From positions 1 through 41,377 of the forward strand of contig JBGUGD010000033.1 in assembly GCA_041697335.1 (NCBI GenBank): DNA of 41,377 nt. The letters are read 5' to 3'. The stretch comes from Vampirovibrionaceae bacterium NZW_1234 (GTDB taxonomy: Bacteria; Cyanobacteriota; Vampirovibrionia; Vampirovibrionales; JAGQHJ01). Position numbers and translations under genes: made by a program. Shown here piece after piece: positions 919 through 35,953 of the stretch. The notes beneath the pieces were generated by a model. The model worked only from the letters and a program-made list of their open reading frames with translations, made no database searches and was not told the DNA's origin. The first letter of the stretch is position 1. The number at the start of each line of letters is the position of its first letter.

Positions 919-981
919 CCGGTATAAATCCTAAAAGAACATTAACCCTAACACAAACACAGTGAGCTCCTGTTTTTATAT

Positions 982-1026
982 ACATAGTGGGTAATAAGTC
1001 ATCTGAAGTATGACTTTCTACTATGT
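982..1026 (+). promoter_or_regulatory. Nested inverted repeat / stem-loop upstream of the large helical-protein gene
   Basis: ACATAGT (982-988) pairs with ACTATGT (1020-1026), and AAGTCAT (996-1002) pairs with ATGACTT (1010-1016). Function unknown. Confidence 0.35.
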
Positions 1027-1056
1027 GTGTGTGGCCTAAACTGGAGTTATGGTGCA

Positions 1057-3978: not shown

Positions 3979-4033
3979 GCCCGGATTCACAATCCAATTG
4001 ATTTATTAATAGAGGCTATGGAAATCGTACACT

Positions 4034-5536
4034 ATGTCGTCAATTAACTTGTTAACAAGTCTAAGCGCGTTAAGCCTGGGTGCACCTCCTGTCACGGCGG
4101 CGACCCCCGTTACGCATACTATTAAGGCACCTCCCGCGGAGCTGCCCACGCCCGGGGCGGGAATTCCGAAGGTGGAACTCCCCCGAATCGAGTTTCCGGC
4201 GGAAGCAGTCAAAATCTTTCGAGGCAAGCTGTCGGAGCCTGAGGCCAAGCGCCTTTTTGGCGAAGAAACCCTGAAGCCGGGCCAGAAAATGGCGCTGGAG
4301 GGCAAACAGGTCGAAGACTTCATGGACGTGTTTCGGGGGCTGAACAAGACCAAACAGGACGAGATCCTCAAGGAACTCAGAACCTCCCCCGAACTGAAGG
4401 ATCTGCCGGAGATGATCCCGCTGATCAAGGCCATGGAAATTGCCAGAACGCCCAATACCACGCTCAAATTTGAGCCGCCGAAACTGGAGGCACCGAAAAC
4501 AGTACCCACTGAGGAAAAAAAGCCGGTAGAGGTCGCGCCTGAAAAGTCCCCTGGCGAGAAAAAGCCGACCGTCAGTAACGATGATTTGGGTGAGGCCGTC
4601 GTACCTGGGAAAGGTCCAGCCGAATTTAAAACGGAATTGGAAAAGATCTTCAAGGAATTCCCCGAGCCCCTGGAAGCCATTGAACTTGCGCGAGCAGAGG
4701 CGGGCACGGATGCGGCCAAACTGACAGCCTTGAAAGAGTATTTGCCGGACTATCTGAAAACGCTCAAGCCCGAACAAATCACGCAATTAAAAGCAAAATT
4801 ACAGGACGCCTCCACCAAGTCCAAAGACATGAAAGCCCTGCAAGAGTCCCTTGCCAATAAGCTTGATCTGGCCAAAGCCTTGGTCGAAGCGAAATTAGCC
4901 GACGCCAAACTGGTGACGACCGTAAGGCAAAATGCCCAACAAGAAGCACTGACGCTGATGAAAGAGGGCAAGCTCAAAACGGTCGATGAGTATAAAGCGG
5001 CCCAAAGCATTTTAGAGCGAGACCAGTTTAGCCAGGCCATTCGTGATCGGTTTGAAGTTATGGCCGAAACTCTGAAAACGGGTAATTTGACGACCCAGGA
5101 TGCTAAGGAGCTGATTAGACTGGGCAACGATCTGGCCAAAGAACTGGGCCTGGGCAAACCCTGGGAAAAAGCCATGGGAGACAAAGGCTTTAACCCGGAT
5201 GGCACACTCAAGCCGCCGGGTGGCATTCCCAAGGCCAGAGCAGACTATCTGCCACCCAAAGAAGCTGAGCAACGCCTCATCGACCTGGGCTTCGAAGAAA
5301 TCCCCGGCCAAACCAGCAAAGGTGAAAAACTGTACTACGACAAGAAAAATAATGTGGCCTGGACCATTGATAAACCTGTCACCGCCAGTAGCGATTCCTC
5401 ATCGCATGGCTCCAAGAGTGGGGACTCCAAAGGTGCCGGGACCTATAAAGCCTACCCGATGAAGGGGGGCAAAGCCAATTTACAGGCAGAACGTTTCGGG
5501 ACCTATGACGCTAACTTCCGATGGATTCGGGAGTAG
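4034..5536 (+). CDS. Polymorphic-toxin-like protein with C-terminal Ntox21-like (CdiA-CT ECL / colicin E3-fold) RNase domain
   Basis: C-terminus KEAEQRLIDLGFEE...SKGEKLYY...WTID...H...GTYKA...RFGTYDANFRWIRE* follows the Ntox21 pattern as recalled (LGY..SHGQ.VY...ITPD.DGH.GG.WK...R.GTYD.NL.RIGD). N-terminus is P/T-rich, then helical. Confidence 0.75.
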   Translation: MSSINLLTSLSALSLGAPPVTAATPVTHTIKAPPAELPTPGAGIPKVELPRIEFPAEAVKIFRGKLSEPEAKRLFGEETLKPGQKMALEGKQVEDFMDVFRGLNKTKQDEILKELRTSPELKDLPEMIPLIKAMEIARTPNTTLKFEPPKLEAPKTVPTEEKKPVEVAPEKSPGEKKPTVSNDDLGEAVVPGKGPAEFKTELEKIFKEFPEPLEAIELARAEAGTDAAKLTALKEYLPDYLKTLKPEQITQLKAKLQDASTKSKDMKALQESLANKLDLAKALVEAKLADAKLVTTVRQNAQQEALTLMKEGKLKTVDEYKAAQSILERDQFSQAIRDRFEVMAETLKTGNLTTQDAKELIRLGNDLAKELGLGKPWEKAMGDKGFNPDGTLKPPGGIPKARADYLPPKEAEQRLIDLGFEEIPGQTSKGEKLYYDKKNNVAWTIDKPVTASSDSSSHGSKSGDSKGAGTYKAYPMKGGKANLQAERFGTYDANFRWIRE

Positions 5537-6884
5537 TCACCAACGGCTTAACCCGGGCGTTAAACCCCTGCTCTGTCAGAATGTCCTGAAGCAGCGCGGG
5601 AAGCTGGCGGTTGATTTGCTCGCTGAGCGTTTCATCTACCCCGGTGTAGCCAATGCCACCCACCACGTTGAGCTTGGATGCCGGATACCGCAAGGCCAGT
5701 TGAACCGCCCCGGGTTTGTCTTCCGGCTTTAAATACCAGATCATATGGCTGGCTTTTTGATGGGTTGCTGGGTAATGCGTGAGTGCGTGCTCATAGGCTT
5801 CTTTTCGCTGCTCCTCCGGCAGGCGATGGATCAGATGCGCCGCCCAGGCCGTAATGTCCGGATGCGGCAGCGCCTTCTTGAACAGCTCAAAGCGCAGTTC
5901 CGGTGAATAATCCCCCAGGCGCCGGATGGTTTCCAACCTTGTGGCGGGAAGCTTTAACCCGTTCTCAAAAAGGGCGACCTGCTCTTTTTCAGGCAACTCT
6001 TGGGGTTTCGGCAGGGGCTTGGGGGCGTTGATGCCTTCATCGGAAGACGTCGATGCCTCTTTTGCGTCGGAGTCTGTCCCCCCGGGGCTGGCCGCGTAGC
6101 AAATCCCGCCTTTATCCCACAGAATCTTCCTGGGGCTTCGGTTGAGCCCTTCATCATCGTGGAGCTGAAGGTTGAATCGCTTCATCACGTCTTTCAGCCA
6201 CGGGCCTCCCCGTTGGTTTGGGTCCTCTTCGGGGCTTATCCATTCATCCAGAAGCCAGCCCGCCTTGGGGTTTCCGGCATAAAACCGACTGCAATCCTTA
6301 ATCGCCCATTGCGACAGGAATTGTCCGGCAGCAATTTCGCCCCAGGCCCCATGCATGGCGACATTCTCGGGAAAGAAAAATACTTTGAACAGAAAGCTGT
6401 CCTGTGGGGTCGTCAGCCGATACGTCTTGCCGCCGAGCTTTCCTTTGGCCACAAATTCACACGTGATCGTTTGACTCTCCGTGCGTTTCGGATCCACGGA
6501 AAACTGAAAAGCCGGAAGCGGGTCGTTGTCCAAGGTTCTGAGAACCGACGCAAGCTTGTCCAATTGTAGCCAGGCAATTGTGGCGGGTGTCTTCCCGATG
6601 AGCTTGTGGGGAAGTTTGCCCACGTGAGGGGATTTGGCACCCTCAATGAGTGTCACCAACGCCTCCGGGGACACCAGCCGTTGCCGACACTCCCAGCTGA
6701 CATCCACGGGCTTGGCCTTGCTGCCAAAGGCAGGCCCTTTGGGGTGGCAGGTAAAGACATCCTGCAAAGGCTGCCCCCAGCTCAGAGGCTTCGGCGGCCA
6801 CGCGTTGTTCGGCACGTGTTGACGTGTGCGTAGATTACCGGTGGCGAGAGGAATTGTGCGAATACTCGGCATAGCTTGCCCCAC
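5511..6884 (-). CDS. Atypical protein-kinase-like domain plus C-terminal helical (HEAT/ARM-like) repeats
   Basis: Gly loop AKGKLGGKTY, beta3 Lys LFKVF, helix-C Glu WGEIAA, hinge WLLDEWI, catalytic-loop-like LHDDEGLN, DFG-equivalent LWDKGG. Start is GTG 6884 after GGAGG, or ATG 6872. Overlaps the toxin gene 3' end convergently by 26 bp. Confidence 0.7.
   Translation of the reverse strand: MGQAMPSIRTIPLATGNLRTRQHVPNNAWPPKPLSWGQPLQDVFTCHPKGPAFGSKAKPVDVSWECRQRLVSPEALVTLIEGAKSPHVGKLPHKLIGKTPATIAWLQLDKLASVLRTLDNDPLPAFQFSVDPKRTESQTITCEFVAKGKLGGKTYRLTTPQDSFLFKVFFFPENVAMHGAWGEIAAGQFLSQWAIKDCSRFYAGNPKAGWLLDEWISPEEDPNQRGGPWLKDVMKRFNLQLHDDEGLNRSPRKILWDKGGICYAASPGGTDSDAKEASTSSDEGINAPKPLPKPQELPEKEQVALFENGLKLPATRLETIRRLGDYSPELRFELFKKALPHPDITAWAAHLIHRLPEEQRKEAYEHALTHYPATHQKASHMIWYLKPEDKPGAVQLALRYPASKLNVVGGIGYTGVDETLSEQINRQLPALLQDILTEQGFNARVKPLVTTPESIGS
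5645..5996 (-). repeat. Four ~29-30 aa tandem helical protein repeats
   Basis: LPEKEQVALFENGLKLPAT.. / YSPELRFELFKKALPHPDI.. / LPEEQRKEAYEHALTHYPAT.. / LKPEDKPGAVQLALRYPAS.. Confidence 0.65.
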
Positions 6885-7061
6885 TGTGATGCTTCCTCCA
6901 ATGAAATCCCTCAATCTTTAAAATTGCCCCCACCAAACCCTTTTTCCAAAAACGTGTCGAATTTAACCCCCCTTCGGCAACGATAGGATGGCAATCCCTA
7001 TTTCAAAGAGTCGCCCTCTTGGCTCAGCAAGGGGGCTGGGCCAGTCTGGAGCACGGCAGTT

Positions 7062-7895
7062 TTACTTCAAAAATTGTTGAATTGCTTTCACGGCTTTTTC
7101 ATCCACATCTTTTTCCTCGGTATTTTCTAAAGCCGGATCATCCGGTGACATTTGTGAAACGAATTCAACATCTTGGAGTGGAACTTCTTTGGTAAAAACA
7201 ATTTCTGGTGCATCAATTTTGGAATTTGTATGGATATATTCGTTTAAAGTCATGCCTTTACGCGCGTGGTCAATTTCGTGCTGATGAGCATGGTAGTGTT
7301 CCTTCATCAACTCCTGGAATATCCGAGGAAAGGCACTCGTAAACTCTTCGCCAGGCTTCAATTTTTGTTTGATTTTTTTCTCGTCGACAATGCTGGAATG
7401 GGGTGTCGCTTGATAAAGAGTATCATCCCAATTCACATCCCGAATTCGAATGGTATCATATTCTGATTTAGGGACTTTGACTTTTAAAAGGACTATCTTG
7501 TCCCCACGGTCTACTTTTCTTCTGATAAACGTGAGGAGCCGCCATAAACGACTATTTTTTCTCCACCCTTTAAGGTTCTCCAGATCTAACGTAAAAATAC
7601 CTTTAATATCCTCCCAAGAGTCAACACCCATTTCATGCTTGCTGGGTATCAGCTTCCCTGACGCTTGAATTTTTTGCCAGAGCCTGCCAGATGTAAAATG
7701 ATAAACAAAATTGGGCAGCTTTCTTGCCTTGTTGTCTGTTTTTACCGTTGTTTCTCCAGAGCAGGCCTCATTGACCCCTGTGCTCATTGGAGCAACCGGA
7801 GTGGACGAAAATCGAACCCCTGTCGGCGAATTTTGCAGACGTATTGGGTCAATTCGTGTTGCGAATTTGGATGTCTGAGTTAGAGCTAGAGACAT
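7062..7895 (-). CDS. Putative ADP-ribosyltransferase-fold protein (His-type ART)
   Basis: VYHFTS..WQKIQASGKLIPS (His strand plus helix), KGIFTLD (aromatic strand), VLLKVKVP, and late APEIVFTKEVPLQDVEFV (candidate catalytic Glu strand). GGGGGGA SD-like sequence lies before ATG 7895. Confidence 0.6.
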   Translation of the reverse strand: MSLALTQTSKFATRIDPIRLQNSPTGVRFSSTPVAPMSTGVNEACSGETTVKTDNKARKLPNFVYHFTSGRLWQKIQASGKLIPSKHEMGVDSWEDIKGIFTLDLENLKGWRKNSRLWRLLTFIRRKVDRGDKIVLLKVKVPKSEYDTIRIRDVNWDDTLYQATPHSSIVDEKKIKQKLKPGEEFTSAFPRIFQELMKEHYHAHQHEIDHARKGMTLNEYIHTNSKIDAPEIVFTKEVPLQDVEFVSQMSPDDPALENTEEKDVDEKAVKAIQQFLK

Positions 7896-8117: not shown

Positions 8118-8322
8118 TCTGAAGGCGTCCATCGCAAAGAATAGAAACAATATTAGACACATGGTGAGTAGCCTATGGCGCAGGTCATCTTAAGATGAAG
8201 GAGGGTTCTCGAGTATACTTGGAGGTGAGCTTGCGACCAAGGGAGCTGATTGGTTCATCCCAACACAAGGGAGCCTGCTTCGCACCCATGAATTTGACCC
8301 GTCATAATCGAAAAGAGACGCG

Positions 8323-8667
8323 ATGATTGAACTGTGGATTAAAGAGATCATTTCATTTTTGGCCATTGCTATTGAAGCGATTGCTGCTCTTTTCATTGGG
8401 ATAGGGGCGATAGAAGGGGTCAAAAATACATTTGCGAACCTCTCCTCGAAGAATGCTCATAAGGAATCACGACTTCGCCTTGGAAGATGGCTCGCCTTAG
8501 CTTTGGAGTTTTCGTTGGCGGCAGATGTTTTAAGAACGGCGGTGTCACCGACATGGAATGAAATAGGCCAGCTCGCTGCCATTGCCACGATTCGGACGGC
8601 CTTAAATTATTTTCTTGAGAGAGAAATTGATCGGCAAGAACGGACTTCAGAGAGTGCCGATATTTGA
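8323..8667 (+). CDS. DUF1622 family small membrane protein
   Basis: RLRLGRWLALALEFSLAADVLRTAVSPTWNEIGQLAAIATIRTALNYFLERE is the typical family signature. Confidence 0.9.
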   Translation: MIELWIKEIISFLAIAIEAIAALFIGIGAIEGVKNTFANLSSKNAHKESRLRLGRWLALALEFSLAADVLRTAVSPTWNEIGQLAAIATIRTALNYFLEREIDRQERTSESADI

Positions 8668-8977
8668 AGAAATTGTTTTGAAAGCTGCCATTGCTTTTCT
8701 GAATCTTGTTGTTGCGGGTATTTTTAGCAGGTCTCTATTTCTTGCAATGTCCTTGCTTCCTGACCTTAAAGCGGCCCAGATAGAAATGTTGGGAGGCGTA
8801 TTGTATGGGTTTGATTTTATCTTGGCTGGTACCCTCCTGAAGACGTTAATCGTAAAAGATTGGCAACAGTTGTTGATGTTAGTTGCAATTTTATTACTCC
8901 GCACTATGGTGAAAACAGCGTTTGCTTGGCAAAACGCGTTTCTCTCGAAACAAAGTTCATATAAAAGCCACGGATAA
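8654..8977 (+). CDS. DUF1622-like membrane protein (divergent second member)
   Basis: GFDFILAGTLLKTL..DWQQLLMLVAILLLRT parallels the DUF1622 motif. GTG 8654 overlaps the upstream gene end; start uncertain. Confidence 0.7.
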   Translation: MPIFEEIVLKAAIAFLNLVVAGIFSRSLFLAMSLLPDLKAAQIEMLGGVLYGFDFILAGTLLKTLIVKDWQQLLMLVAILLLRTMVKTAFAWQNAFLSKQSSYKSHG

Positions 8978-9151: not shown

Positions 9152-9245
9152 CTACGTCTTAATGCCCGCCAGCAGGGTTTCGGGGGAGACTTGACCGATG
9201 GCTTCCAGGAGGCGGGCCTGGGAGCGGTTGTAGTTGATTGTGGCG
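9152..9245 (-). pseudogene. Detached 3' fragment of the TolC-family gene (direct repeat of 16226-16319)
   Basis: 85/94 nt identical by manual alignment. Encodes ATINYNRSQARLLEAIGQVSPETLLAGIKT* versus ATINYNRSQVRLLEAIGQVSPETLLTGIKT*. Confidence 0.9.
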
Positions 9246-9434: not shown

Positions 9435-10790
9435 TTATTTCGATCGACTCTTCAAAAAGACATAACTTTGTTTTGCGATTTTAAACATCAAAGAGTCTTT
9501 TGTAAAAAATCGACGAAAAATCTGCTCAGAATCCCGTTCTAGGCAATGGAAAATATATTCCATGGGAGATTGCTGCCGATAGTATTTGAAATATTGAGCC
9601 AGCTCTTGTTCAGTTTGAGCACGACCATTATCGGAAAATTTACAGACCACTGGCGTAAAATTCGGGTATAAGCTATCAACATTGTGCAGTGTCGTTTTCA
9701 TAAAATTGCCAATCAACAGATCGTCAAAAATTTCATAGCTCATAGCTGTAACAAGCGAGTTGCGAGGACATTCGAAGGTAATACCCGTTTTTAGATCAGA
9801 ATTTAAAACAATATAGTTATCCTCTCCCCCCACCTTTAAGTTAATAAATCCAAAGTGCTCGGCTAGCCTTTCTTTGGAAGAGAAATATCGATTTGCAAGT
9901 TCAAGATCTTTTTTGTCTAATGTTTCAGACCAATCATCTCCAAATTCAGCAGGTTGATAGATAAGAGATTCTCGCTCCACTGTCTTGATAGAAGAAATTT
10001 CACCAGTCACACAGTCAATCTGTTGGAATGGTGATAGAAGCTCACCCAAACGATAGTCAAATCCCTCAGTATAGCTACTTGCAGGTGTCGTGTACTCGTT
10101 GGCCCAAATACTATCTGCTCTCTGGTAGGTGTGGAATGAGCTGAATGGAATTACATGATTACATCGGTACAGCTTCAAATACGTCGTTAGTTGTGAACCA
10201 ACACTACGCTTCTTTGCGGCATCTGGCAAAATGCGTTCTCCAGACTCTGTAAAAAAGTTAATCATATCCGCATCACCATACCCGCTGAGCTTGAGTAGGT
10301 AGGTATTCTTGTAATTATTTACTATGCTTCGAACGGTTTTACCCCAACCTCTGTCATTGGCATCATTTAAGTTAACAAACAAATGCCCGTTAATATCTAC
10401 AAGCAAGATGCTATCTTGAAAATAATCCGAAATACAAAACACCTTAATATTCTTGGAAAGCTGTACCCATTCGCGGTTCGGTAAAATCGAGACTTGGTAG
10501 CCTTGTTCCAACAAATCCGAATAGATACGTTTGCCATAGTGATCCGGCAATAAGATCTGGGCATTTTTGAAATACGCTAGTGAATCCCCATTGAGATGGT
10601 CAGGATGACCATGCGAAAACCAAACATATTGGCAAGCTAAAATTTCATCCTTTTCTTGTTGAGGAATAGGGTGTGACAATGTCCAGCTTCCAAAGTAAGC
10701 TCCTTCACCCAACCAAGGATCTGTCGCCAAAATGGGAATATCTTCAAATGCAATCAGCGTTGCATTGCCTATTGTTTTGCATCCAAGCAT
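9435..10790 (-). CDS. Metallo-beta-lactamase-fold protein (UlaG / CMP-Neu5Ac hydroxylase MBL-domain-like)
   Basis: LATDPWL..AYFGSW, SHGHPDH (HxHxDH), QDS, NLND, IPFSSFH. No Rieske CxH motifs. Confidence 0.85.
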   Translation of the reverse strand: MLGCKTIGNATLIAFEDIPILATDPWLGEGAYFGSWTLSHPIPQQEKDEILACQYVWFSHGHPDHLNGDSLAYFKNAQILLPDHYGKRIYSDLLEQGYQVSILPNREWVQLSKNIKVFCISDYFQDSILLVDINGHLFVNLNDANDRGWGKTVRSIVNNYKNTYLLKLSGYGDADMINFFTESGERILPDAAKKRSVGSQLTTYLKLYRCNHVIPFSSFHTYQRADSIWANEYTTPASSYTEGFDYRLGELLSPFQQIDCVTGEISSIKTVERESLIYQPAEFGDDWSETLDKKDLELANRYFSSKERLAEHFGFINLKVGGEDNYIVLNSDLKTGITFECPRNSLVTAMSYEIFDDLLIGNFMKTTLHNVDSLYPNFTPVVCKFSDNGRAQTEQELAQYFKYYRQQSPMEYIFHCLERDSEQIFRRFFTKDSLMFKIAKQSYVFLKSRSK

Positions 10791-10841
10791 ATAATACCCT
10801 TTGTCAATTTCACTTATCTATCAATAAGAACCCGCTTAACA

Positions 10842-11882
10842 CTAGAGCCGATCAAATGTGTTAATTACCGGTATCAAGTAATTAGTCACAAGTTGCTTAA
10901 CGCCTTTTTCATTCATATGTGCTTGATCGTAGAAGAATGTGCTATCAAAAGCATCCGGAGAGACGAATTTAACACTCTCATTGAGAAAAGGAGCGATGTC
11001 ACGATGAAGCATTGATTTAAAGGATGGATGCAACTGTTTTAGTCTTGCCATATCCGGGCGCTCAAAGTTAATCGGAGTCAAATAGATTACTACTTGCAAG
11101 TTATTTTCCTGTAGATATTGTAACATCCTTTTTACAATTTGCATTTGCCCTCTGTAAGAGTGGTGAAACGGAAACGGACTTGTTTGTGCTATAGAGCTTG
11201 GACGCGGCTTCAAGAATAATTGATTTAATTTGCTCCATGCAAGCTGCTGCTTTTCATACAATGAATAATTTAAAAGTATATTTTGCATCAGCATTCTATA
11301 GGAATAAAAATGCCAATGGTTCATAAGCCAATTATTAAGGCCAGCTTCAACCTCACCCATCCAATTACGATACGTAGGTCTCATTGCATAATGTCCGTTC
11401 TTGATCTCAAACAACTCTAACCAAGGCCGGGAAAAGCCATTGGCAGGTGCACCAAATCTCATCAAATTTAGTTCCATGATAACAACCTTGGGTTTATGGA
11501 TAGGCAATACCAAATGCAGCATTTGTTCCATATCTTCAAGAGTAGCACCTTTCATGGCCAAGCTTGAAACAAAAAGATTTTGATGTTTCAGTGCAGCCAT
11601 CATCTGAGAATCAATGGTTTCCCTCCGCCAGTTTCTCACATGGTGCGAAGCCAAAACCTGGCAAGTAACGGTAGAATCACCGATAATAAGAATGTCTGGA
11701 TTAGAACGGCTTACCTTATGATATAGAACTTCCGGATAACCGACATCGACAGGTATCTCATACAATGCAAGCCGAGAGACAAGCATTTCTAGGCAGAGAT
11801 CCAAAGCGACAAAAAAAGCAATAATACTAACGATACAAAGAATCCGCTGCTTTATCATGACAATGTTGGCTTTCTTCTGCAT
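10842..11882 (-). CDS. Membrane-anchored SGNH/GDSL-like protein (DltD/AlgJ-like acyl-transfer component)
   Basis: N-terminal TM (ILCIVSIIAFFVALDLCL), block I ILIIGDS, C-terminal FYDQAHMN (DxxH). Start is probably 11882 or 11858 rather than 11906. Confidence 0.8.
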   Translation of the reverse strand: MQKKANIVMIKQRILCIVSIIAFFVALDLCLEMLVSRLALYEIPVDVGYPEVLYHKVSRSNPDILIIGDSTVTCQVLASHHVRNWRRETIDSQMMAALKHQNLFVSSLAMKGATLEDMEQMLHLVLPIHKPKVVIMELNLMRFGAPANGFSRPWLELFEIKNGHYAMRPTYRNWMGEVEAGLNNWLMNHWHFYSYRMLMQNILLNYSLYEKQQLAWSKLNQLFLKPRPSSIAQTSPFPFHHSYRGQMQIVKRMLQYLQENNLQVVIYLTPINFERPDMARLKQLHPSFKSMLHRDIAPFLNESVKFVSPDAFDSTFFYDQAHMNEKGVKQLVTNYLIPVINTFDRL

Positions 11883-11892
11883 ATTAATCGAC

Positions 11893-12003
11893 TTAAAATT
11901 TTTCATAATGGAAAATGGCCACAGAAGGGTTAGAACATAAAATCAGAATAACAATCTTGCAGATAACAAAAAAGACATTTAGCCACATTTGCTTAGAAAT
12001 CAT
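11893..12003 (-). CDS. DltX-like small membrane peptide (36 aa), not in the ORF track
   Basis: MISKQMWLNVFFVICKIVILILCSNPSVAIFHYEKF*: one TM helix and C-terminal FHYEKF, matching the DltX FIYNEF hexapeptide. Fills the gap between the MBOAT and SGNH genes. Confidence 0.8.
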   Translation of the reverse strand: MISKQMWLNVFFVICKIVILILCSNPSVAIFHYEKF

Positions 12004-12018
12004 GACTCAATCCAGTAC

Positions 12019-13221
12019 TCAAAATTTAATCAACTGCGGAGCAACTTTCCAAATCAGTTCGTTGGGTAAAACACCTAGCCATATGGTAAACGAGACAAAT
12101 AGATATGTCGCTACGCCTGCCATAGGCTTCGGCCACGGCTTTAGTTTATACTGCTTCCCAAGTTGAATCATGAATAACGCACAGGCATGCAGTATTCCAA
12201 ATATTAAAAAGCCAAATGTTAACCCATGCCATAACGTAATCAGAACCATGCAAAACATGTAACTCATCGTAATAAGAAACCAGTGATATTTCGCATGGCA
12301 TCCCTTATAGATCAATCTGGAAAGAGGAACAAACACATAATCTCGGATAAATTCAGTCAAACTTATATGCCAGCGAGTCCAAAACTCTTGAACATTAGAA
12401 GCCAACCAGGGTGACCTAAAATTTTCGGGAAGATGAATCCCCATTAACGCAGCTAGTCCAATAGCAATATCACAATAGCCACTAAAATCCATATAAATAA
12501 CAAACAAGGTTAAGAGAATACTCAGCCAGAGTATTTCTGTAGAGACATTACTGGTTAAGCTAAACTGTTGTTGAGTATCGATAAATATCATTAAATTGTC
12601 AGCAATAACAAATTTTTTAACGAAGCCGGACAAAATACGATTAATTTGGCTTAATAGTTGTGAACTTTGCTCAGGTTTCTGTGACAAAAGTATCGAGTTC
12701 TGGAACTCTTTATATCGCGCAATTGGGCCAGCTAAAAGAGAAGGGAAGAAGAACAAATAATTAATATATGGAATAATCGCTAAATCGTCATTTATATCCG
12801 AATCAACAATGTAGGACATTGCTCGAAACAAGATATAAGAGAGTCCAATAATTTTAATAGGAAGCCGTATTCCAACGAAATCCGCCAAAATTGAGTGTAC
12901 CAAAACACTCTTTAACCCTAGAAGCAATCCAAATGTAACCAGAAATAACACCCCAAAAATCAAAAAAGAATGATGTAACTTTTTAACTTTATATATTTTC
13001 GCCAGGCTAAAAGAACTGAGTGTGATAATCATAAAAAAAACAAGTGTCGACAGACTGGAAATTGTAAAATACAGAAAATAGGCATTACTGCATAGCAAAA
13101 CAAATTGTCTCACAGACTGTGAGCGTATATTTCTATAGAGCAGAATGACCAGAAAACTGAAGAGGAAAAAGTGAAATGAAAGAAATTTGATTGCCGAATT
13201 ATGGGCAAAAAAGGAATCCAT
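12019..13221 (-). CDS. MBOAT family O-acyltransferase (DltB/AlgI-like)
   Basis: IGLSYILFR, FFPSLLAGPIARY, GFVKKFVIAD, YMDFSGYCDIAIG, PENF, EFWTRWHISL, catalytic LWHG. Confidence 0.95.
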   Translation of the reverse strand: MDSFFAHNSAIKFLSFHFFLFSFLVILLYRNIRSQSVRQFVLLCSNAYFLYFTISSLSTLVFFMIITLSSFSLAKIYKVKKLHHSFLIFGVLFLVTFGLLLGLKSVLVHSILADFVGIRLPIKIIGLSYILFRAMSYIVDSDINDDLAIIPYINYLFFFPSLLAGPIARYKEFQNSILLSQKPEQSSQLLSQINRILSGFVKKFVIADNLMIFIDTQQQFSLTSNVSTEILWLSILLTLFVIYMDFSGYCDIAIGLAALMGIHLPENFRSPWLASNVQEFWTRWHISLTEFIRDYVFVPLSRLIYKGCHAKYHWFLITMSYMFCMVLITLWHGLTFGFLIFGILHACALFMIQLGKQYKLKPWPKPMAGVATYLFVSFTIWLGVLPNELIWKVAPQLIKF

Positions 13222-13224
13222 GGT

Positions 13225-13461
13225 TCAAGCCTGTTGCAATTTCGCTTCTAATAGCACTCTTAAGTCACCTACATTTTTTAGCCGAGCAATCTCCGATGTT
13301 GAAAGCTGGATGCCAAAGGTAGTCTCTACCTCCAAAATCAGCAAAACATGTGTAACAGAGTCCCAGTTCGGGACATCTGAGGCCGTCATCTCATCTGAAA
13401 TAACCAGTTCAGGAACATTAAACACCTTACAAAAGACATCGTTTAGCTGCTGATAAACCAA
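13225..13461 (-). CDS. Acyl/aminoacyl carrier protein (DltC-like role)
   Basis: WDSVTH phosphopantetheine-Ser motif, LEVETTFGI, NVGDL. TTG start at 13461 follows AGGAGG. Confidence 0.92.
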   Translation of the reverse strand: MVYQQLNDVFCKVFNVPELVISDEMTASDVPNWDSVTHVLLILEVETTFGIQLSTSEIARLKNVGDLRVLLEAKLQQA

Positions 13462-13640
13462 AATGCCTCCTGATGCTTTAAGCCGTTTTCCCAATATTAA
13501 GAATAGTATACAGGCTTGAACCGGAACAAATGTCCTTCAGGTACATGACTTTTTTCTATACACTCCTTCTATCTGGCCTAAATGGTATTATTTAGATATT
13601 CTAAGAGTCTCAGCCCGATAGAATGGTAAAGTGTTAATCC

Positions 13641-14243
13641 ATGCATACAGATATTAAGATCACTTCATTTAATGCTCTCCAAGATGAACACTACCAGTCA
13701 CTCGCTCATCTTATAGAAGCAGCGAACCCCCAATATTATTCCTTATTACCCTTTTCTCCCACTCAACGAACAGAAAGCATCGTGCAATTCCTTCGTCAGG
13801 AGAGCTGTCCCCTTCCAGAATTTACTCGGCTAATATATAAAGGTACATATCTTGCAGGTGCTGCCATAGCTTATCCTTCTAACTTGCAAGCCCAAGTCCA
13901 AATGTCCGAAGTAAAAGCTTTTCTGCAAAACCTGTCTAGTAGTGAAAGACAAATATACATATCCAAGTTACAGAGCTTTGCAAACGCAACTGTAAATGAG
14001 TTACCTCAAAACACCTATTATTTATTTAGAATTGCTGTGCTCGAATCCTTCCGTGGCCAAGGGCTAGCCAAAATGCTTATAGAGGATTACCTGGACATTG
14101 GCAAATATAGCCAGGGGTACTGCTTACACGTAAAGAAAGACAATTTTGCAGCTATAACGCTCTATGAAAAAAACGAGTTTAAACCAATTTCAACCTATGA
14201 TGAGACTAAAGACTATATTCTAATGCTCAAATCTTGCCAATAA
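13641..14243 (+). CDS. GNAT family N-acetyltransferase
   Basis: YLFRIAVLESFRGQGLAKML (acetyl-CoA motif A), LHV..DN.AA..LYEK..F. Confidence 0.9.
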   Translation: MHTDIKITSFNALQDEHYQSLAHLIEAANPQYYSLLPFSPTQRTESIVQFLRQESCPLPEFTRLIYKGTYLAGAAIAYPSNLQAQVQMSEVKAFLQNLSSSERQIYISKLQSFANATVNELPQNTYYLFRIAVLESFRGQGLAKMLIEDYLDIGKYSQGYCLHVKKDNFAAITLYEKNEFKPISTYDETKDYILMLKSCQ

Positions 14244-15875
14244 TTATAGCAATTGCTTTTCTGAATTACGCTCCAATTCAATCAGATCTTTATAATTGAT
14301 TTTACCGTTTGTATTATAGGGTAACTCTGGCAGCCATGTGATTCGAGAAGGTACCATATAATCTGGCAATTTTTGTCTACATTCATTCAAAATGCTAGTT
14401 GAGGCCGCTTCCGATTGATCAGAATCCAAATCAACAATAAAAGCTAAGATTCCCATAAAGCCTTCTGTTGCATTAGGAGGAATACCAATAACCGCCACTT
14501 GATCGGTATTCACAATACCTCTCAGAGCAATTTCAACTTCTTGTAACTCCACTCGAAAGCCCCTAATCTTAACCTGGCGATCTTTTCTGCCAAGAAAATG
14601 TAGTACACCTTCCTTCAAGACAACAAGGTCTCCGGACTTATAATAAACATCTTCTGACGCCCCCAACTGATGTAAATGAATAAACGCATCAGCAGTTAAA
14701 ATAGTATTTTTATAATACCCCTCTGTGACTTGGGGCCCAGCAATCAGCAATTCCCCTGGCATACCCGGGGGTACGGCCTCTAAATTATCATTTACAACAG
14801 CAATATGTGTTCCCAAAAGAGGATTTCCAATCGGCACAATTCCTTCATCTTCTTGGACTTGATCGGCTTGTGTCCACTGATAAATCGTCATAGCAACTGT
14901 GGTTTCAGTTGGGCCATACGTGTTATAAATTTGGGCATTGGGTGCTGCCAATTGAAACGACTGAACCAACTTACGACTAAGAGGTTCCCCAATAAACATG
15001 GCATTTTTCAACGACATTAAGGAATTCGGATGCAGTAAACCTAATTTTTTTAATAGTGACGCCGTTGAAGGCACAGAAAACCAGTGAGTTAATTGATTTT
15101 CAGAAACGAATCTGCCGGTCAGCAAATTAGCGCTTTCGGGAATATTATACAAGCAGGCTCCAGCTTCCCAACAACATATCATGTTATGAACCGATACATC
15201 AAAAGTCATATCAAATAATTGAGCAAACCGATCGGTCTCAACAGCTGCAACATATTGACGAATGCCCTTTAAATAGGCCAAGAAATTGGCATGTGAAACT
15301 GTGATCCCTTTGGGCTCTCCCGTACTTCCAGAGGTAAACAGAGTATAAAGTGCTGTATCCCGATGTATAACAGGCATTTGGAATTGATTTGAATTAATAG
15401 CCTCTATATCATCCTTAAAGAAAAAGCTATGATGGCTACAGGCAGGAGGTATCACCTCGAGCGAGTTGATTTCAGGGAGCAAAACAATTACAGAGGTTTC
15501 AATTTCGGATAGAATTTCTAAACTCTGCTTTAAGCAACGATTATCAACAATCCAACAACTTGCAGCAGTAGAAACAGCCATTTTTACATTCCGTTCCTTA
15601 GGAAAGCGAGGATTCAGTGGCAAATAAGTCATCCCGCTTTGTATGCTAGCCACCACACCGACATACGCGGTCAAAGAACGATAACCAAAAAGAGCGATAT
15701 AACTTTCGGAATGCAAGCCACACCCGGTAGTCACATGTTGGCGTATCAAAACACTCATTCGTGCCGCAAGATTCCACATAAATTCGTAGCTATATTCGTT
15801 ATCATCTACCCACAAGCACGGTCTTTCAGGCCACTTATGGCAGGCCTGAGAAATAAGATGAAGCACATTGTCCAT
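14244..15875 (-). CDS. Stand-alone amino acid adenylation enzyme (DltA-like carrier-protein ligase)
   Basis: YLPLNP, YTLFTSGSTGEPKG (A3), FDVSV (A4), NTYGPTE (A5), GELLIAGPQV..GY, YKSGD, GRKDRQVKIRGFRVEL, LPDYMVP, NGK (A10). Confidence 0.95.
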   Translation of the reverse strand: MDNVLHLISQACHKWPERPCLWVDDNEYSYEFMWNLAARMSVLIRQHVTTGCGLHSESYIALFGYRSLTAYVGVVASIQSGMTYLPLNPRFPKERNVKMAVSTAASCWIVDNRCLKQSLEILSEIETSVIVLLPEINSLEVIPPACSHHSFFFKDDIEAINSNQFQMPVIHRDTALYTLFTSGSTGEPKGITVSHANFLAYLKGIRQYVAAVETDRFAQLFDMTFDVSVHNMICCWEAGACLYNIPESANLLTGRFVSENQLTHWFSVPSTASLLKKLGLLHPNSLMSLKNAMFIGEPLSRKLVQSFQLAAPNAQIYNTYGPTETTVAMTIYQWTQADQVQEDEGIVPIGNPLLGTHIAVVNDNLEAVPPGMPGELLIAGPQVTEGYYKNTILTADAFIHLHQLGASEDVYYKSGDLVVLKEGVLHFLGRKDRQVKIRGFRVELQEVEIALRGIVNTDQVAVIGIPPNATEGFMGILAFIVDLDSDQSEAASTSILNECRQKLPDYMVPSRITWLPELPYNTNGKINYKDLIELERNSEKQLL

Positions 15876-16225: not shown

Positions 16226-17686
16226 TTACGTCTTAATGCCCGTGAGGAGGGTTTCGGGGGAGACTTGGCCGATGGCTTCCAAGAGACGGACCTGGGAGCG
16301 GTTGTAGTTGATCGTGGCGCGAATCAGGTTGTTGTGCGCGTTGATGCGGGAGGTCTGGGCATTCAGGACGTTGAGATAAATGCCCTTGCCGGCCTGATAA
16401 TTTTCTAACGCTATCCGGTAATTCTCATCGGCCAGGCGATCCTCTTCTTCGGCCTTCGTCACCGACTCGGAAAAGGTGTTGACATCAATGTAGGCGTTCA
16501 TCACCTGGCTCTCGATGTTGCGTCGGGCGGCCTCCAGGGCGAAGACCTTGCGTTCGATTTCCAGCTTTTTTTCCTGAAGCCGATACGGAATCGCCACGCC
16601 CATGTTTTCCAGCAAGTTAATGTCCAGGGCAATGCCCTTGGTGAAGTTGTAGTTCATGGTGTCCCAGTCCGCCCCGTTGCCGCTTAAATTGCTCCGCAAC
16701 GTCACGGACGGAATCAGGGTCGAGCGAATGGTTTTGTACTCGTACTCCAAGGCCTTCTGCTCTTCGGCTTGGCGCTTGAGAACCGGATGATTCCGGCCGG
16801 CAAATTCCAGCAGCGCCTCCGCGGATGTCGCCGAATCAACCAGGGGGCGTTGCGTCGGCCTGTTTTCAGCGGGCACCACATTGGCGGTCAATGCCAGGTT
16901 CAGCCGGTTGAGCAACCCGATTTTAGCTTTGGCATAGGTGTTCTCGGCATCAATGCACATGCGCTCCATCTGGATTTTCTGGTTTCGGGCCTGGCTCAAA
17001 TCCAATTCCTCCACCGTGGCCTGCTCCAGACGGGCTTCATGGTAAGCCACCTGTGCCTTGGCTTCGGCCAGACCGTTTGAGACAACCTGGTAATACAGAT
17101 AGGTCTACAGAACCCGGTAATAATCCTCCACGGCCCGGGCCAGTTGCTGCTGCAAGGTCTCCTCCACCTGCATGGTGCTGGCTGCCTTGCGGCGCTTGGC
17201 CGACCGAATCTCATATAAGGTCCGCCCCCCGGGATGCAGCGTCACGTTGGCCTCCAGCGCAGGCTGCTGGCTGCGGCGGAGGATGCGGTCATTGGCGCGG
17301 CTGCCGAAAACCGGCACCCCAGTTTGCAGGGTATTGGTGTTATACAGGCCCCGGACATTGGGCAACAACTTTGCCTGGTTCTGGCGCAGCCGGGAATGGG
17401 CGATTTTGGCGGACAGCTTCTCCTGGGCCAGGGTTAAATTCTGACGCTCCGTCAGGTCAATCACCGTGGCCAGGTCAATGGGTATCGCCTGTGACTGCTC
17501 GATGTGCCCCCGCAACACAGGGCCTTTCTCCGGCTCCGTGGTGGCCACATCCGTAGGGTGTCCAAGCTCACCCGGCGCTTGGGCGAGACCAGCGCTCACA
17601 AGCCCGGCCAGGATTATTACAGTCACGGCAACTACACACCAAACCCGAAGCGGCCAATTTGTCAGGAAGATTCCCATCGCGTGCAT
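16226..17686 (-). pseudogene. TolC-family outer membrane efflux protein interrupted by one in-frame TAG (17105-17107)
   Basis: ORFs 17105-17686 and 16226-17050 are in the same frame: ...EDYYRVL*TYLYYQVVSNGLAEAKAQVAYHEARL... Signal peptide present; OEP motifs LLPNV, LIPSVTL, YRIALENYQAGKG.YLNVLNAQ. Confidence 0.85.
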
Positions 17687-19015: not shown

Positions 19016-19140
19016 GGTGCTGGTAGCTTTGCAAGGCGCTATTTCCCACCAATATCCCCGTTGTGCTGGCTGAGTCCTCTTTTCACGTTGGCCCGTCTGT
19101 TGGATTGCAGATCTCGCCTTCAGGTTTCAGAATACTCGCC

Positions 19141-19485
19141 ATGATGGAACGGTGGATCGACGAGGGCATATCATTTTTGGCTTTGGGCCTTGACGTGATT
19201 GCTGCCTTATTTATTGGGATTGGGGCAGTCGAGGCGGTCAAGAACACATTTGGCAAGCTCTCCATAAGGAATGCCCATCCGGAATCCAGGCTTCAATTGG
19301 GACGATGGCTGACCTTGGCCTTGGAGTTCCTTTTGGCCGCAGATGTTTTAAGAACAGCCATGTCACCCACCTGGAACGAGATCGGTAAACTCGCTGCCAT
19401 TGCCGCCATTCGGACGGCACTCAATTACTTTCTGGAAAAAGAACTGGACAGGCAAGAACAGGCTGAAAAAGAATCCGGGACCTGA
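19141..19485 (+). CDS. DUF1622 family small membrane protein (paralog of 8323-8667)
   Basis: RLQLGRWLTLALEFLLAADVLRTAMSPTWNEIGKLAAIAAIRTALNYFLEKE. Same length (114 aa) as the first copy when started at ATG 19141. Confidence 0.9.
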   Translation: MMERWIDEGISFLALGLDVIAALFIGIGAVEAVKNTFGKLSIRNAHPESRLQLGRWLTLALEFLLAADVLRTAMSPTWNEIGKLAAIAAIRTALNYFLEKELDRQEQAEKESGT

Positions 19486-19925
19486 TAAACGTTCTCTGGG
19501 ATGTGATCACGCTACGAGTCCTGGACATTCAGATGGAAATAGATCATCCGGTTTCTTTCCTGTTGGGTGATGCTGTGTATTTAAGCCAACGCACAAGACT
19601 CTCTAAACGATTCTCCTGTAATAGTCTAATGGCGTTGCAGCCCATGGAATCAAACGACAAAATGATTCTGAGGGTCTTGAATATGCTATGTCGTAAGACG
19701 ATCAAAGGCGACTATCGTTTTTATTTGGGATTTTTTGTGGGTAGTTTTGTTTTCTATGAAGGTTTTTGGGAATATTTTATTCTTAACCCCTTGCTAAATC
19801 AATCTTCTGAAGATGTTTTACTCTGCAAAAGCCTGAAAAGGAACTATAAAGAAACTATTAATTCCATTCAAGTTTTCATCCACACTGCCGAAGACCAATT
19901 TAATTGGAGTCTACCTGAGGCGTTT

Positions 19926-21257
19926 ATGGCTCATATCCTGTATATTGCTCAATTTTACAGTTCGGCAGAGCAGCCTGGAGGGCAGGGATTTCGGCATTTT
20001 AAACATACTCAAGCTTTGGCAGAGAATGGCCATCAGGTTACATTAATCACCAGTGGCAATACAACAATGTCCAATAATCATCGGGAACAGGACGTCGTCC
20101 CCAGCCATCCGGATGTTACAATTGTCCACTTGAAATCCAAACCATTGAATAAACGCAATGTCATCAGTCGTGCCATCAATTATTTTCAATTTGGGTTTAA
20201 TGCACTCGCTGCTGGTATCCAGCTAACCCTGACAGAAAAGCCACGATATGAGATTGTTCTAGGATCATCTCCATCGATTGTGATTGGTGTCATTGCCTTT
20301 ATACTGGCTTTTTTAAATCAAGCCAAATTCTACCTGGAAGTTCGTGACTTGTGGAGTCAGGTCATGGCTGCCAATGGCTTTATTCGAAATAAAATGGTCA
20401 TTGCCCTGAATGCTTGGGTTGAAACGTTTTTGTACCATCATGCGGATACAATTATTGTCCTTTCACAGGCTTTCGAAGAGGAGATCCGAAAACAGGCTCC
20501 TGGAACAAAAGCCGACTTCTTCTTTATACCCAACGGAGCAGATTTTGAAATTGCAGCACCGGCTCAGTCACGAGTCACGTCAGCGCCGGTTAAGAGCAAG
20601 CCGTTTGAAGTCGTTTTTGCTGGTGTATTTAGCGATTATACCAAGTTGGAAACCTTGATTGAGACCGCAAAAATTCTTCAAGCTAAAGAAGAAATCGTAT
20701 TTCACCTTGTTGGAGGGGGATATGAGTATGAAAAAATTAAAGCGCTTGCCGAAGAAGCAGGACTCGAAAATGTCAACTTCTGGCCTGCAATCTCCAAGTC
20801 AGAAGTCTCCCATTTCCTCGCCCGATGCGATTTGTCTGTCATCAGTTATCGTGATTTGGAAATCTATAAGACCGTTCTGCCCAATAAGTTGTTCGAATAT
20901 ATGACAATAGCACGCCCCATTGTCGCTAGTGTTTGCCCCGGGGAAATTACCAAAGTTATCGAAAGTAGTGAATGTGGAATAGTTGTACCTCCTGAGTCTC
21001 CCGAACAGCTTGCACAAAGTATTGTGTGGCTCTACGAGCATCCAGCAGAACGGCACAAGATGGGCAAAAATGCTGTGAGATATGTGAGAAAGCATTTCGA
21101 TAGAAGCAGACTAGTGCAACAGTATGTCGATATTTTCCCAATGACGGAAGAACAGTCTATGCCTATGCAGATGGCGATATGGAATGATGAAATGGAAACC
21201 ATTAAACTCAGTCCAGTCGTGGTTGCTTCTGGCTCGGAAAATCGACAGACCGCCTAA
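19926..21257 (+). CDS. Glycosyltransferase family 4 (WbuB-like)
   Basis: MAHILYIAQFY, GHQVTLIT, SSPS, LEVRDLW, IPNGAD, FAG, LPNKLFEYM..ARPIV, G.VVPPESPEQLA. Confidence 0.93.
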   Translation: MAHILYIAQFYSSAEQPGGQGFRHFKHTQALAENGHQVTLITSGNTTMSNNHREQDVVPSHPDVTIVHLKSKPLNKRNVISRAINYFQFGFNALAAGIQLTLTEKPRYEIVLGSSPSIVIGVIAFILAFLNQAKFYLEVRDLWSQVMAANGFIRNKMVIALNAWVETFLYHHADTIIVLSQAFEEEIRKQAPGTKADFFFIPNGADFEIAAPAQSRVTSAPVKSKPFEVVFAGVFSDYTKLETLIETAKILQAKEEIVFHLVGGGYEYEKIKALAEEAGLENVNFWPAISKSEVSHFLARCDLSVISYRDLEIYKTVLPNKLFEYMTIARPIVASVCPGEITKVIESSECGIVVPPESPEQLAQSIVWLYEHPAERHKMGKNAVRYVRKHFDRSRLVQQYVDIFPMTEEQSMPMQMAIWNDEMETIKLSPVVVASGSENRQTA

Positions 21258-21298
21258 ATTCATCGACCCTAATCATTAAACTCAATGTTTGGCTTATT

Positions 21299-22645
21299 TT
21301 AAGGAAGTCTTGGCTCTCTGCGAGTTTGGTGCAGCCGAATTGTCTTGTCAAACGCTGCCATCATTTCCTGATATAGTGATTCGGAACTATATGTCCGGGT
21401 TACAAAAGAAAACCCATTCATACCCAGCTGTTCAGCCAGTGCCGGATTATCCCAGAGTTCTTTTACACACTGGCGCAGAGAGGTCACATCACCAGGTGGG
21501 TATAATAATCCGGTTTCTCCATGATGAACCAGCTCGGGAATGCCACCAACTTGTGTTCCAATAACGGCTTTTGAAAAGGAAAACGCTTCTAGAATAACCA
21601 TGCCTAAGTTTTCGTAGGACAGAGAGGGAATAATAACTGCAAGTGCATTCTGAAACAGTTCCGCAAGCTCAAGACCACTTTTCCATGGGAGTAAATGAAT
21701 ATGACTTAAATTGCCGGACTTGATGTAGGCCTCCATCTCTGTACGATATGGGCCGCTCCCGGCAATATAAAGAGGAATATCCGGAAGTGCTTCGAATGCT
21801 TGAATTAATGAAAGATAGCCTTTCGAAGCTTGAAGCCGCCCTAAGGATAAAAAATAGTGATTTTGACTGCTTGAGTGGGATGGCTTCTCCTGCCTAATTA
21901 ATCCATCTCCAAAGCTATTGCGTAATATTCCGACCTCGTTATGTCTAAACTGATAAGATTGTTGGATAAGAACTTTAAGAGACTGACTTGGCGTCACAAT
22001 ATAGTCGACAGAGTCCGGTAAGCCTTTCAAAACGTCTCTGAATTCCATGAGTCGTGCGATACGTTTCAAGGGGTTGGCAATGCATTTATAAGTAATACAT
22101 GATTTTCCCCAATCATCTTTTTGAGTGCAAAGGCCTTCGCAGTTGTTGGTTATATCGTAACGAGCTCCTTTATTTAATTCTCTGTTTGGACATATGAGGG
22201 TTGGGCCATGGACCTTATAAATACTGGGAATACCAAGTTGCTTTGGAAGCTGAAACAACTCTTTAAACCGTAAGAAATCACCCGTAGAGTGAAAGTAGAC
22301 AATGTCAGGCTTAAAATCCTGGATAGCAGCTTTCAGCCTGCGGGTAATGATAAAGGGGCGTAAAGGGTTTTTTTGCTCTACCAGATAAAAATATCTCCGA
22401 ATTTTATATAAGACCTTTCGCCATAAGCTCGATGTATCCTTTAGTTGATGGTAGACATAGAAATCCGGAAATGCGAAATAATGCATGGCACTGCATTTGG
22501 ATTCGTGTGGAAAAAAGCTTAGATTAAAATGAAGACAAAAATGACCGATCGTATGCGAATGTTCTTGTAGCAATTTAGTCTCGTTAATCAGAACGGTTGG
22601 AACCCCACCGCCGGAATGGCGTTCAAAAACAAATAGAATTCGCAT
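21299..22645 (-). CDS. Glycosyltransferase family 4
   Basis: MRILFV...GGG, FKPDIVYFH, LGRLQASKG, PSLSYENLGMVILEAF (EX7E), GGIPELV.HGETG. Confidence 0.93.
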   Translation of the reverse strand: MRILFVFERHSGGGVPTVLINETKLLQEHSHTIGHFCLHFNLSFFPHESKCSAMHYFAFPDFYVYHQLKDTSSLWRKVLYKIRRYFYLVEQKNPLRPFIITRRLKAAIQDFKPDIVYFHSTGDFLRFKELFQLPKQLGIPSIYKVHGPTLICPNRELNKGARYDITNNCEGLCTQKDDWGKSCITYKCIANPLKRIARLMEFRDVLKGLPDSVDYIVTPSQSLKVLIQQSYQFRHNEVGILRNSFGDGLIRQEKPSHSSSQNHYFLSLGRLQASKGYLSLIQAFEALPDIPLYIAGSGPYRTEMEAYIKSGNLSHIHLLPWKSGLELAELFQNALAVIIPSLSYENLGMVILEAFSFSKAVIGTQVGGIPELVHHGETGLLYPPGDVTSLRQCVKELWDNPALAEQLGMNGFSFVTRTYSSESLYQEMMAAFDKTIRLHQTRREPRLP

Positions 22646-22828
22646 TGTCTGGGATCCGTTTGCCTTCAAGTGTCCAAGAAATACAAAGAGGTTATCTAGT
22701 ATACATTATAGTTTAGTTGTCTCCGGAATTATCATTCGTACAGGGGAATTTGAAATTTATCGGCACGGTATAATAAAGAAAGTGTTTTGCTGGGGCTTTT
22801 GCTGCCCAGGCGGTGAGAGAAGGGAATC

Positions 22829-23866: not shown

Positions 23867-23869
23867 TTC

Positions 23870-25105: not shown

Positions 25106-25276
25106 TATGGCTGATTTAATGCCAGCATGCCCGGCAATGATGTTGAAAATAGCTTCTTAATTTTAGAGGTCCTCCTTTCTCGCTAAAATCAAGCCTTGTA
25201 GCTCCTATGGTAGCATGATATGTCTTTTCTCTTATCTGCTAAAATGAGTGTATGAGGGCCACAACGAAGTGTTGGT

Positions 25277-27490: not shown

Positions 27491-27493
27491 GTT

Positions 27494-29353: not shown

Positions 29354-29376
29354 ATATAGGCTGTGTACATAGTTGG

Positions 29377-30726: not shown

Positions 30727-30827
30727 GGCTAGTTTTGAGCATGATTGGCATGGGTATGGATTTCCTTCAAAGGAAAAAGAGTAGAGGATTTCATAATGAG
30801 TAGGGACATCTAAGCTAGCTCTGGTTA

Positions 30828-32078: not shown

Positions 32079-32165
32079 TAACCTTCTCCTCAGTTTGGAA
32101 AGGAATATAACCCTGTTTATGGTTATTCAAACTGTGTTTTGCTCTGTTCTAACATTTCTAGTCGC

Positions 32166-35862: not shown

Positions 35863-35953
35863 TTGTTATTTTGTTTTTTAACATTTGTTAGCCTCGCCGG
35901 ATTAGGGGGTGTGACTGTGATATGCTACACACCTCCAGGAGTTGAGGTGTTTC

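Follow-up and report, generated by a model that had tools for sequence, protein, structure and literature searches.

A candidate Dlt-like aminoacyl relay with an AlmE-like loader in a Vampirovibrionaceae bacterium

In contig JBGUGD010000033.1 of Vampirovibrionaceae bacterium NZW_1234 (41,377 nucleotides (nt), the whole stretch being hereafter called the window), counterparts of the five components of the Dlt pathway of Firmicutes lie at 9435-15875 together with genes for an MBL-fold protein and a GNAT acetyltransferase. The initial annotation regarded them as a seven-gene cassette, in which an amino acid would be activated, possibly hydroxylated or N-acetylated on its carrier, and exported onto a glycan. 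This locus thus raises the question of which of the seven genes act together, and on what. The reading we favor, with moderate confidence, is that the five core genes constitute a Dlt-type relay esterifying an envelope glycan with glycine or D-alanine, and that the MBL and GNAT genes are co-travelling passengers.

All seven open reading frames were confirmed to be open. Five of them form a tight run on the minus strand with intergenic distances of 3, 15, -14, and 51 nt, namely a carrier protein (78 residues from a TTG codon, 13225-13461; Pfam PP-binding at the cut-off), an MBOAT of DltB length (400 residues, 12019-13221; Pfam MBOAT), a DltX-like micro-protein designated X (36 residues, 11893-12003), a membrane-anchored SGNH protein as the DltD counterpart (354 residues, 10842-11906; assigned by alignment and fold), and the MBL-fold protein (451 residues, 9435-10790; a weak Pfam MBL match, E 0.003). 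The gene for a stand-alone amino-acid adenylation enzyme of the AlmE/DltA-like type (543 residues, 14244-15875; Pfam AMP-binding) is also encoded on the minus strand, and the GNAT gene (200 residues, 13641-14243, plus strand; Pfam Acetyltransf_1) is interposed before the carrier gene, its stop abutting that of the adenylation gene tail-to-tail with zero gap (14243/14244). The cassette as annotated therefore held with regard to its frames, but not as a single co-directional set, as the antisense GNAT gene splits the adenylation gene from the run. The carrier probably starts at the TTG located 4 nt behind a GGAGG, and its longest open frame would begin at 13494. Promoter and terminator scans of the block remained at chance level (23 vs 20.0 and 4 vs 5.5, respectively).

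The catalytic residues expected of a Dlt-type relay were found to be intact. The carrier scored 21.4 bits against the PP-binding cut-off of 20.8 with its WDS motif and Ser35 retained, and gave no match to the DltC model; its closest relatives were the carriers of two FkbH-fed cassettes (L262 and L264, 47-48%), followed by that of an adenylation-fed cassette (L249, 43%). The MBOAT reached 178 of the 375 bits required by the DltB model TIGR04091, and its His332 was invariant in all eight aligned sequences. Like DltB, it has no C-terminal FxYxxF motif, which was fused to the MBOAT in 7 of the 17 members of our MBOAT tree. The available text of PMC12148441 describes FXYXXF as the acyl shuttle motif of DltX. 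X comprises a single hydrophobic helix and a C-terminal FHYEKF containing Tyr33; the motif occurred in 6/6 aligned X peptides, which had been selected for it, and the Pfam DltX model matched none of the six X-type members.

The SGNH protein, for which, as for X, Pfam gave no match in the window itself, was assigned through its relatives and its predicted structure. A HMMER search retrieved 81 relatives, a word-indexed search the window protein alone. The triad Ser78/Asp327/His330 was invariant in the 61 aligned relatives, 48 of which matched Lipase_GDSL_2, and the DltD model was absent from the Pfam matches of these 61. The protein carries an N-terminal membrane anchor, and its model (predicted local distance difference test score, pLDDT, 91) matched SGNH folds at Z 13.6-17.1, the longest alignments being given by DltD structures (7DXM, 248 residues, Z 15.8; the other, 245 residues, Z 14.9), which nevertheless scored below other SGNH folds (best Z 17.1). 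The same architecture was found in four other loci (L103, L249, L262, and L264). Residues and architecture together support the annotated view that the core, consisting of adenylation enzyme, carrier, MBOAT, X, and SGNH protein, is probably Dlt-like.

The adenylation enzyme fell below the DltA cut-offs (259.8 of 559.85 bits for TIGR01734 and 267 of 476 for NF003417). Its best stand-alone PDB match was AlmE (4OXI), ahead of DltA, and AlmE and two Streptomyces-type enzymes for small amino acids outscored DltA by far. The pocket code, read off alignments at positions that we take to follow the GrsA numbering, was D-V-H-F-M-I-T-V-A-(K), as compared with DLHFLCLIA in 28 of 38 family members, DLHLFCLIA in AlmE, and DLMVFCTVA in Staphylococcus aureus DltA. 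While T-V-A at positions 322/330/331 is the same as in DltA, the window enzyme has Val227 at the position of AlmE L248/DltA L198 and Ile295 at that of AlmE C316/DltA C269, and thus keeps neither the Leu/Cys D-Ala pocket of DltA nor the Leu248/Cys316 glycine pocket of AlmE; Leu and Cys are retained in most of its family. According to the available text of PMC11253843, the Leu and Cys positions of both AlmE and DltA act as gates for D- and L-side chains; IdnL7, an L-Ala/Gly/Ser enzyme, is said to have Cys and Ala at these positions. The Val/Ile pair would open the pocket on its D side and close it on its L side, and D-alanine or glycine is therefore predicted as the substrate, a soft prediction drawn from five changed positions.

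In the proposed mechanism, the adenylation enzyme would activate the amino acid and load it onto Ser35 of the carrier, presumably its cognate partner. The MBOAT would transfer it to Tyr33 of X, by analogy with Dlt, PatAB, and the shuttle described in the available text of PMC12148441, and X would pass it on to Ser78 of the periplasm-facing SGNH protein, all these residues being present in the window proteins. The SGNH protein would then acylate the acceptor, for which the neighboring Wzx/Wzy-type polysaccharide or lipopolysaccharide (LPS) are candidates. The export half of carrier, MBOAT, X, and SGNH protein is of a module family fed elsewhere by FkbH and a MaoC dehydratase; in the window, the AlmE-like adenylation enzyme likely replaced that loader.

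Among known systems, AlmEFG of Vibrio cholerae provides the closest solved stand-alone adenylation enzyme, with a pocket code nearly identical to that of the family. It differs in that MBOAT, X, and SGNH protein stand in the place of AlmG, a lipid A late-acyltransferase-type enzyme, and in the window pocket residues equivalent to L248 and C316. As the window relay would, AlmEFG uses a carrier to bring a small amino acid to an acceptor in the envelope, as described in the available text of PMC11253843. The PatAB/AlgIJ-type O-acetyltransferases share the MBOAT-Tyr-SGNH relay, but they draw on an acyl-CoA donor and have FxYxxF fused to the MBOAT.

We collected 50 core-type loci, comprising 42 with a member of the adenylation family as anchor (about 20 from one clade), 4 plasmid regions, and 4 anchored on the SGNH protein; an MBOAT was present in 28 and absent from 22. 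Nine of the 50 came from a metagenome scan with the adenylation alignment, which yielded 79 loci of mostly generic nonribosomal peptide synthetase (NRPS) type. A split MBOAT plus X was counted as clear only in the four loci named above. L249, found in 1 of 151 genomes searched, encodes in the order of the window the adenylation enzyme, the carrier, the MBOAT, X, and an SGNH-like protein, without GNAT or MBL, and is followed by a formyltransferase gene. When 392 genomes were searched with the SGNH protein, only L262 (9354-15451) and L264 (5730-11893) matched strongly. Both combine FkbH (above the NCBIfam cut-off), MaoC, a methyltransferase, carrier, MBOAT, a separate FxYxxF peptide, and SGNH protein, with no adenylation gene; they likely export an acyl group derived from glycerate into the envelope, and our literature search found no published description of such FkbH/MaoC-fed MBOAT/DltX-like/SGNH cassettes. 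L103 contains an SGNH-like protein, X, MBOAT, two carriers, a pyridoxal phosphate-dependent decarboxylase, and an AMP ligase. The SGNH-like proteins of L249 and L103 were so called by position, size, N-terminal hydrophobic stretch, and C-terminal DxxH; pairwise BLAST between them and the window SGNH protein was not significant, and the SGNH profile missed both. At L263 an FxYxxF frame overlaps the MBOAT call and may be a frameshifted fused form; this locus was aligned but left out of the split-cassette count.

In the unrooted MBOAT tree (17 rows, after removal of short fragments and of 11 almost identical rows from a single clade), the window MBOAT was sister to that of FkbH-fed L264 (99/99), and that of FkbH-fed L262 was sister to that of adenylation-fed L249 (100/100). 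Because two sister pairs thus join FkbH-fed and adenylation-fed cassettes, the loaders appear swappable, and the simplest account would be that the export module exchanged its loader more than once. No FkbH or MaoC match was detected in the host genome at E 1e-4, and the six plasmid regions read around matches of the MBOAT and the adenylation enzyme contained no split cassette. Elsewhere, about 18 loci, apparently from one clade (L218-L236), shared a conserved unit of carrier, divergent MBOAT, and adenylation enzyme (pocket DAYEVGSIC), the MBOAT lacking a C-terminal FxYxxF and neither X nor SGNH protein being seen. The host genome itself holds a second MBOAT with an AlgI-like N-terminus (contig C4, 67393-68565), cut by the contig end.

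The initial annotation had overlooked that the block is flanked by a pair of tolC 3'-end copies. A 93-nt repeat occurs exactly twice in the host genome with 91% identity, once at the left boundary as a decayed copy on the minus strand (9153-9245) and once (16227-16319) at the 3' end of the tolC-like gene forming the right boundary (16226-17686, minus strand), which carries an in-frame TAG at 17105-17107. The GC content at third codon positions (GC3) of the seven block genes was 0.35-0.44 and ranked between the 1st and 6th percentiles of 1567 long frames, which average 0.565; the adjoining tolC had an unusually high GC3 (0.75). In 4/4 relatives fetched, tolC is directly followed by MacAB-type genes, which the window tolC lacks, with no cassette. 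Given the low GC3, the bounding repeat, and the continuous, cassette-free tolC-MacAB arrangement in relatives, the block is likely an acquired insert. A search of 40 relatives from the same family or order yielded only weak partial matches, in one genome with the SGNH profile, in one with the MBL profile, and in two with the GNAT. Of 300 other genomes in the phylum, the adenylation profile had a match in 1, and this distant member has a different pocket and no MBOAT. Four contig runs of low depth, which come from no more than two samples and may represent the source itself, showed no joint across the repeat of the kind expected of an empty site. Additionally, DUF1622 genes flank the tolC/cassette region (8319-8641 and 19137-19459, 75% over 323 nt), a second sign of local duplication, and another DUF1622 gene lies at 8615-8977.

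The host genome (3.70 Mb, 41 contigs) encodes a cyanobacterial-type RpoC1 just above the cut-off (978.3 vs 975.9), two phosphopantetheinyl transferase matches, and LpxC; the host is therefore diderm and likely belongs to the Cyanobacteriota. A Wzx/Wzy-type polysaccharide cluster, the candidate source of the acceptor, extends over 19503-35862 on both strands in alternation and was identified by Pfam/family matches to two GT4 and one GT2 glycosyltransferases, Wzy_C, a bi-domain oxidoreductase, a heparinase II/III-like protein, a flippase-like protein, Wza, Wzc, and a WecC-like dehydrogenase, with GC3 as low as that of the block. Toward the window ends (19-7895 and 35942-37132) are six long frames (277-983 residues) with no Pfam match above the cut-off, the five of them tested also having no NCBIfam match.

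These observations also bear on the possibility that the block is a mosaic, in which an export module deprived of its FkbH loader, idle or otherwise fed, happens to adjoin a cytoplasmic adenylation/GNAT pair, aminoacylating for example a nucleotide sugar. Strand continuity breaks exactly between the two halves, the MBOAT, SGNH protein, and carrier are closest to those of FkbH-fed modules, 22 of the 50 core-type loci do without an MBOAT, and the flanking tolC is broken and bereft of its MacAB-type neighbors. However, all seven frames are intact with their catalytic residues whereas tolC carries a stop, both halves would have to use the single carrier of the block, and L249 shows the same order of adenylation enzyme, carrier, MBOAT, and X. 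We thus consider such a mosaic unlikely.

We then asked whether the MBL-fold protein belongs to the relay, as it would if the cassette were a true seven-gene pathway in which the GNAT N-acetylates and the MBL protein hydroxylates the carrier-bound amino acid (e.g., N-acetyl to N-glycolyl) before export. Its family counted 3099 proteins at E ≤ 0.001, with no named member, and the context was read in the best 80 genome loci (45-53% relatives; in 37 the flanks extend over the full 10 kb). Searched with profiles, these 80 revealed no MBOAT, one carrier, two weak SGNH, and three weak AMP-binding matches; conversely, no MBL protein was found in the 50 core-type loci. The MBL protein and the window GNAT were both missing from five genomes, including those with the three closest split architectures, a set containing no positive control. 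Conservation of MBL and GNAT with the core, set beforehand as the refuting test, hence came out against the seven-gene pathway. In contrast, a glycan-biosynthesis gene was located within 3 kb of the MBL gene in at least 22 of the 80 loci, or 22 of 47 after removal of three kin blocks of 20, 7, and 6 loci, these counts being lower bounds as recurring clusters and near neighbors were annotated. In L001 the MBL gene neighbors genes for a heparinase II/III-like protein and a UDP-sugar dehydrogenase, a pair also present in the polysaccharide cluster of the window. In 20 loci of Myxococcaceae type (L013 and 19 others), it follows a fusion of topoisomerase and RecQ of about 1600 residues, within a conserved block that has no glycan genes close by.

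The residues H60-H62-D64-H65, D143, and H220 of the MBL protein were invariant in 120 aligned sequences; the third-motif His is absent, with D122/Q125/D126 conserved there. It thus shares the MBL fold and HxHxDH with CmlA/FrsH and NamH/CMAH, and in its model (pLDDT 90.5) CmlA (Z 16.7) and UlaG-type hydrolases were tied as top fold matches (Z 16.5-17.2 for the group). Residues 1-260 aligned to CmlA 250-532 and FrsH 251-531, so that the MBL fold starts at residue 1, and the C-terminal part of about 180 residues (271-451) was unmatched in fold searches; a viral fold search likewise gave generic MBL matches only and barely covered this part. The analogy to CmlA drawn by the initial annotation failed on domain content, as the N-terminal domain of about 250 residues is missing, and on substrate, as the adenylation pocket predicts glycine or D-alanine, the former having no beta carbon; an NRPS context is lacking as well. 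By its ESM features the protein lay near an SCP2_Rv3818 cluster (rank 29 of 30, with a score of 0.94), 52% of whose members carry PF25451. In the available text of PMC13574776, Rv3818 is namH, and NamH consists of Rieske and MBL domains. In 30 MBL family members, however, there was no Rieske match and no PF25451 match at E 0.1, and an N-acetyl hydroxylation akin to that by NamH/CMAH is accordingly a weak lead. Because it lacks the CmlA N-terminal domain and often stands beside glycan genes, the MBL protein is more likely a separate enzyme, cytoplasmic and metal-dependent, whose substrate would be a nucleotide sugar or a precursor of a glycan.

As for the GNAT, no close relative was retrieved from any data searched, and neither it nor the MBL protein had a match in the 79 metagenome loci. 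The single GNAT-profile match in the 50 core-type loci, at L124, was itself a profile member and therefore circular, aligning with the window GNAT at E 4e-4 over 64 residues only. Antisense to the run and not co-conserved with the core in the loci searched, the GNAT was not supported as the tailoring enzyme it had been taken for, and is likely a passenger. The idea of acyl tailoring survived in a weaker form, since in at least 7 of the 50 loci (L104, L120, L121, L124, L215, L248, and L250; with an MBOAT in one only) unrelated N-acyltransferases adjoin the genes for adenylation enzyme and carrier, and since the formyltransferase gene mentioned above lies behind the cassette of L249. In L215 (8823-11253) and L248, a GNAT-carrier fusion lies directly upstream of the adenylation gene within a nucleotide-sugar cluster (DegT, oxidoreductases), which looks like a unit for cytoplasmic sugar N-aminoacylation. 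Taken together, the common GC3 and repeat-bounded block, the co-directional MBL gene, its NamH- and CmlA-like features, and these adjoining acyltransferases speak for a seven-gene pathway, but the absence of co-conservation in both directions, the antisense GNAT, and an MBL protein without Rieske or CmlA N-terminal domain make it improbable.

A distant true Dlt orthologue that D-alanylates a lipid or LPS, in line with the proposal for Dickeya, is quite doubtful: the five counterparts (adenylation enzyme, phosphopantetheine carrier, a short MBOAT retaining its His, a separate micro-protein ending in FxYxxF, and a membrane-anchored SGNH protein), the DltA-like T-V-A, the LpxC of the host, and the dlt genes acting in Dickeya (PMC3544676 and PMC5541007, in their available text) argue for it, but every component falls under the Dlt cut-offs, the pocket has Val/Ile instead of Leu/Cys, the adenylation enzyme lies far closer to AlmE, the carrier and SGNH protein seem to belong to other subfamilies, the export half is akin to FkbH-fed modules, and the gene order differs, being A-(GNAT)-C-B-X-D. 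Dickeya, Pectobacterium, and Photorhabdus carry dltBAC and dltD according to the available text of PMC3544676, which PMC5541007 repeats, and the substrate is left unidentified there. These are Dlt-type genes in diderms whose acceptor is described there as unidentified or probably LPS; they differ, by that description rather than by sequence, in being annotated Dlt homologues with no DltX mentioned. The window relay would thus work like Dlt without being a member by family cut-offs.

Several observations weigh against our favored reading of a five-gene relay with two passengers. An antisense gene separates the adenylation gene from the carrier gene, the nearest relatives of the adenylation enzyme (P0122 and P0202, 47%) come without gene context for the presumed pairing, and its pocket deviates from its own family at 5/9 positions, which softens the substrate call. 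L249 is the only locus in which this adenylation family directly heads a split cassette, its MBOAT is not the sister of the window MBOAT, and both trees contain long branches. With respect to the passengers, the MBL gene lies only 51 nt behind the SGNH gene on the same strand, the 80 MBL loci are not its closest relatives (55-61%) and fewer than half are fully flanked, and N-acyltransferases do recur beside adenylation/carrier pairs. Moreover, the shared low GC3 indicates that all seven genes likely arrived together, and a recent functional recruitment of MBL and GNAT would leave no conservation signal.

That dlt genes occur in diderms was already known, and the seven-gene pathway was not supported. 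Our literature search found no description of a split, carrier-fed cassette in diderms, although surveys may already list diderm DltX-like loci. A broader and quite speculative picture would be a widespread chassis of carrier, MBOAT, micro-protein, and SGNH protein in diderms with plug-in loaders (FkbH plus MaoC, acyl ligase plus decarboxylase, or AlmE-like adenylation enzyme), to which GNAT and a Rieske-less NamH-like MBL protein were freshly recruited, making an N-acetyl- or N-glycolyl-glycine or -D-alanine ester on a surface polysaccharide. According to the available text of PMC12148441 (2025), MBOAT/SGNH pathways other than Dlt have neither a carrier protein nor a DltX-like micro-protein, whereas both occur in the window and in four loci from samples of different phyla. 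The MBL family, often encoded in glycan clusters, is a target in its own right. Finally, sister MBOATs with different loaders make the donor range of the MBOAT-Tyr-SGNH relay testable by loader swap.

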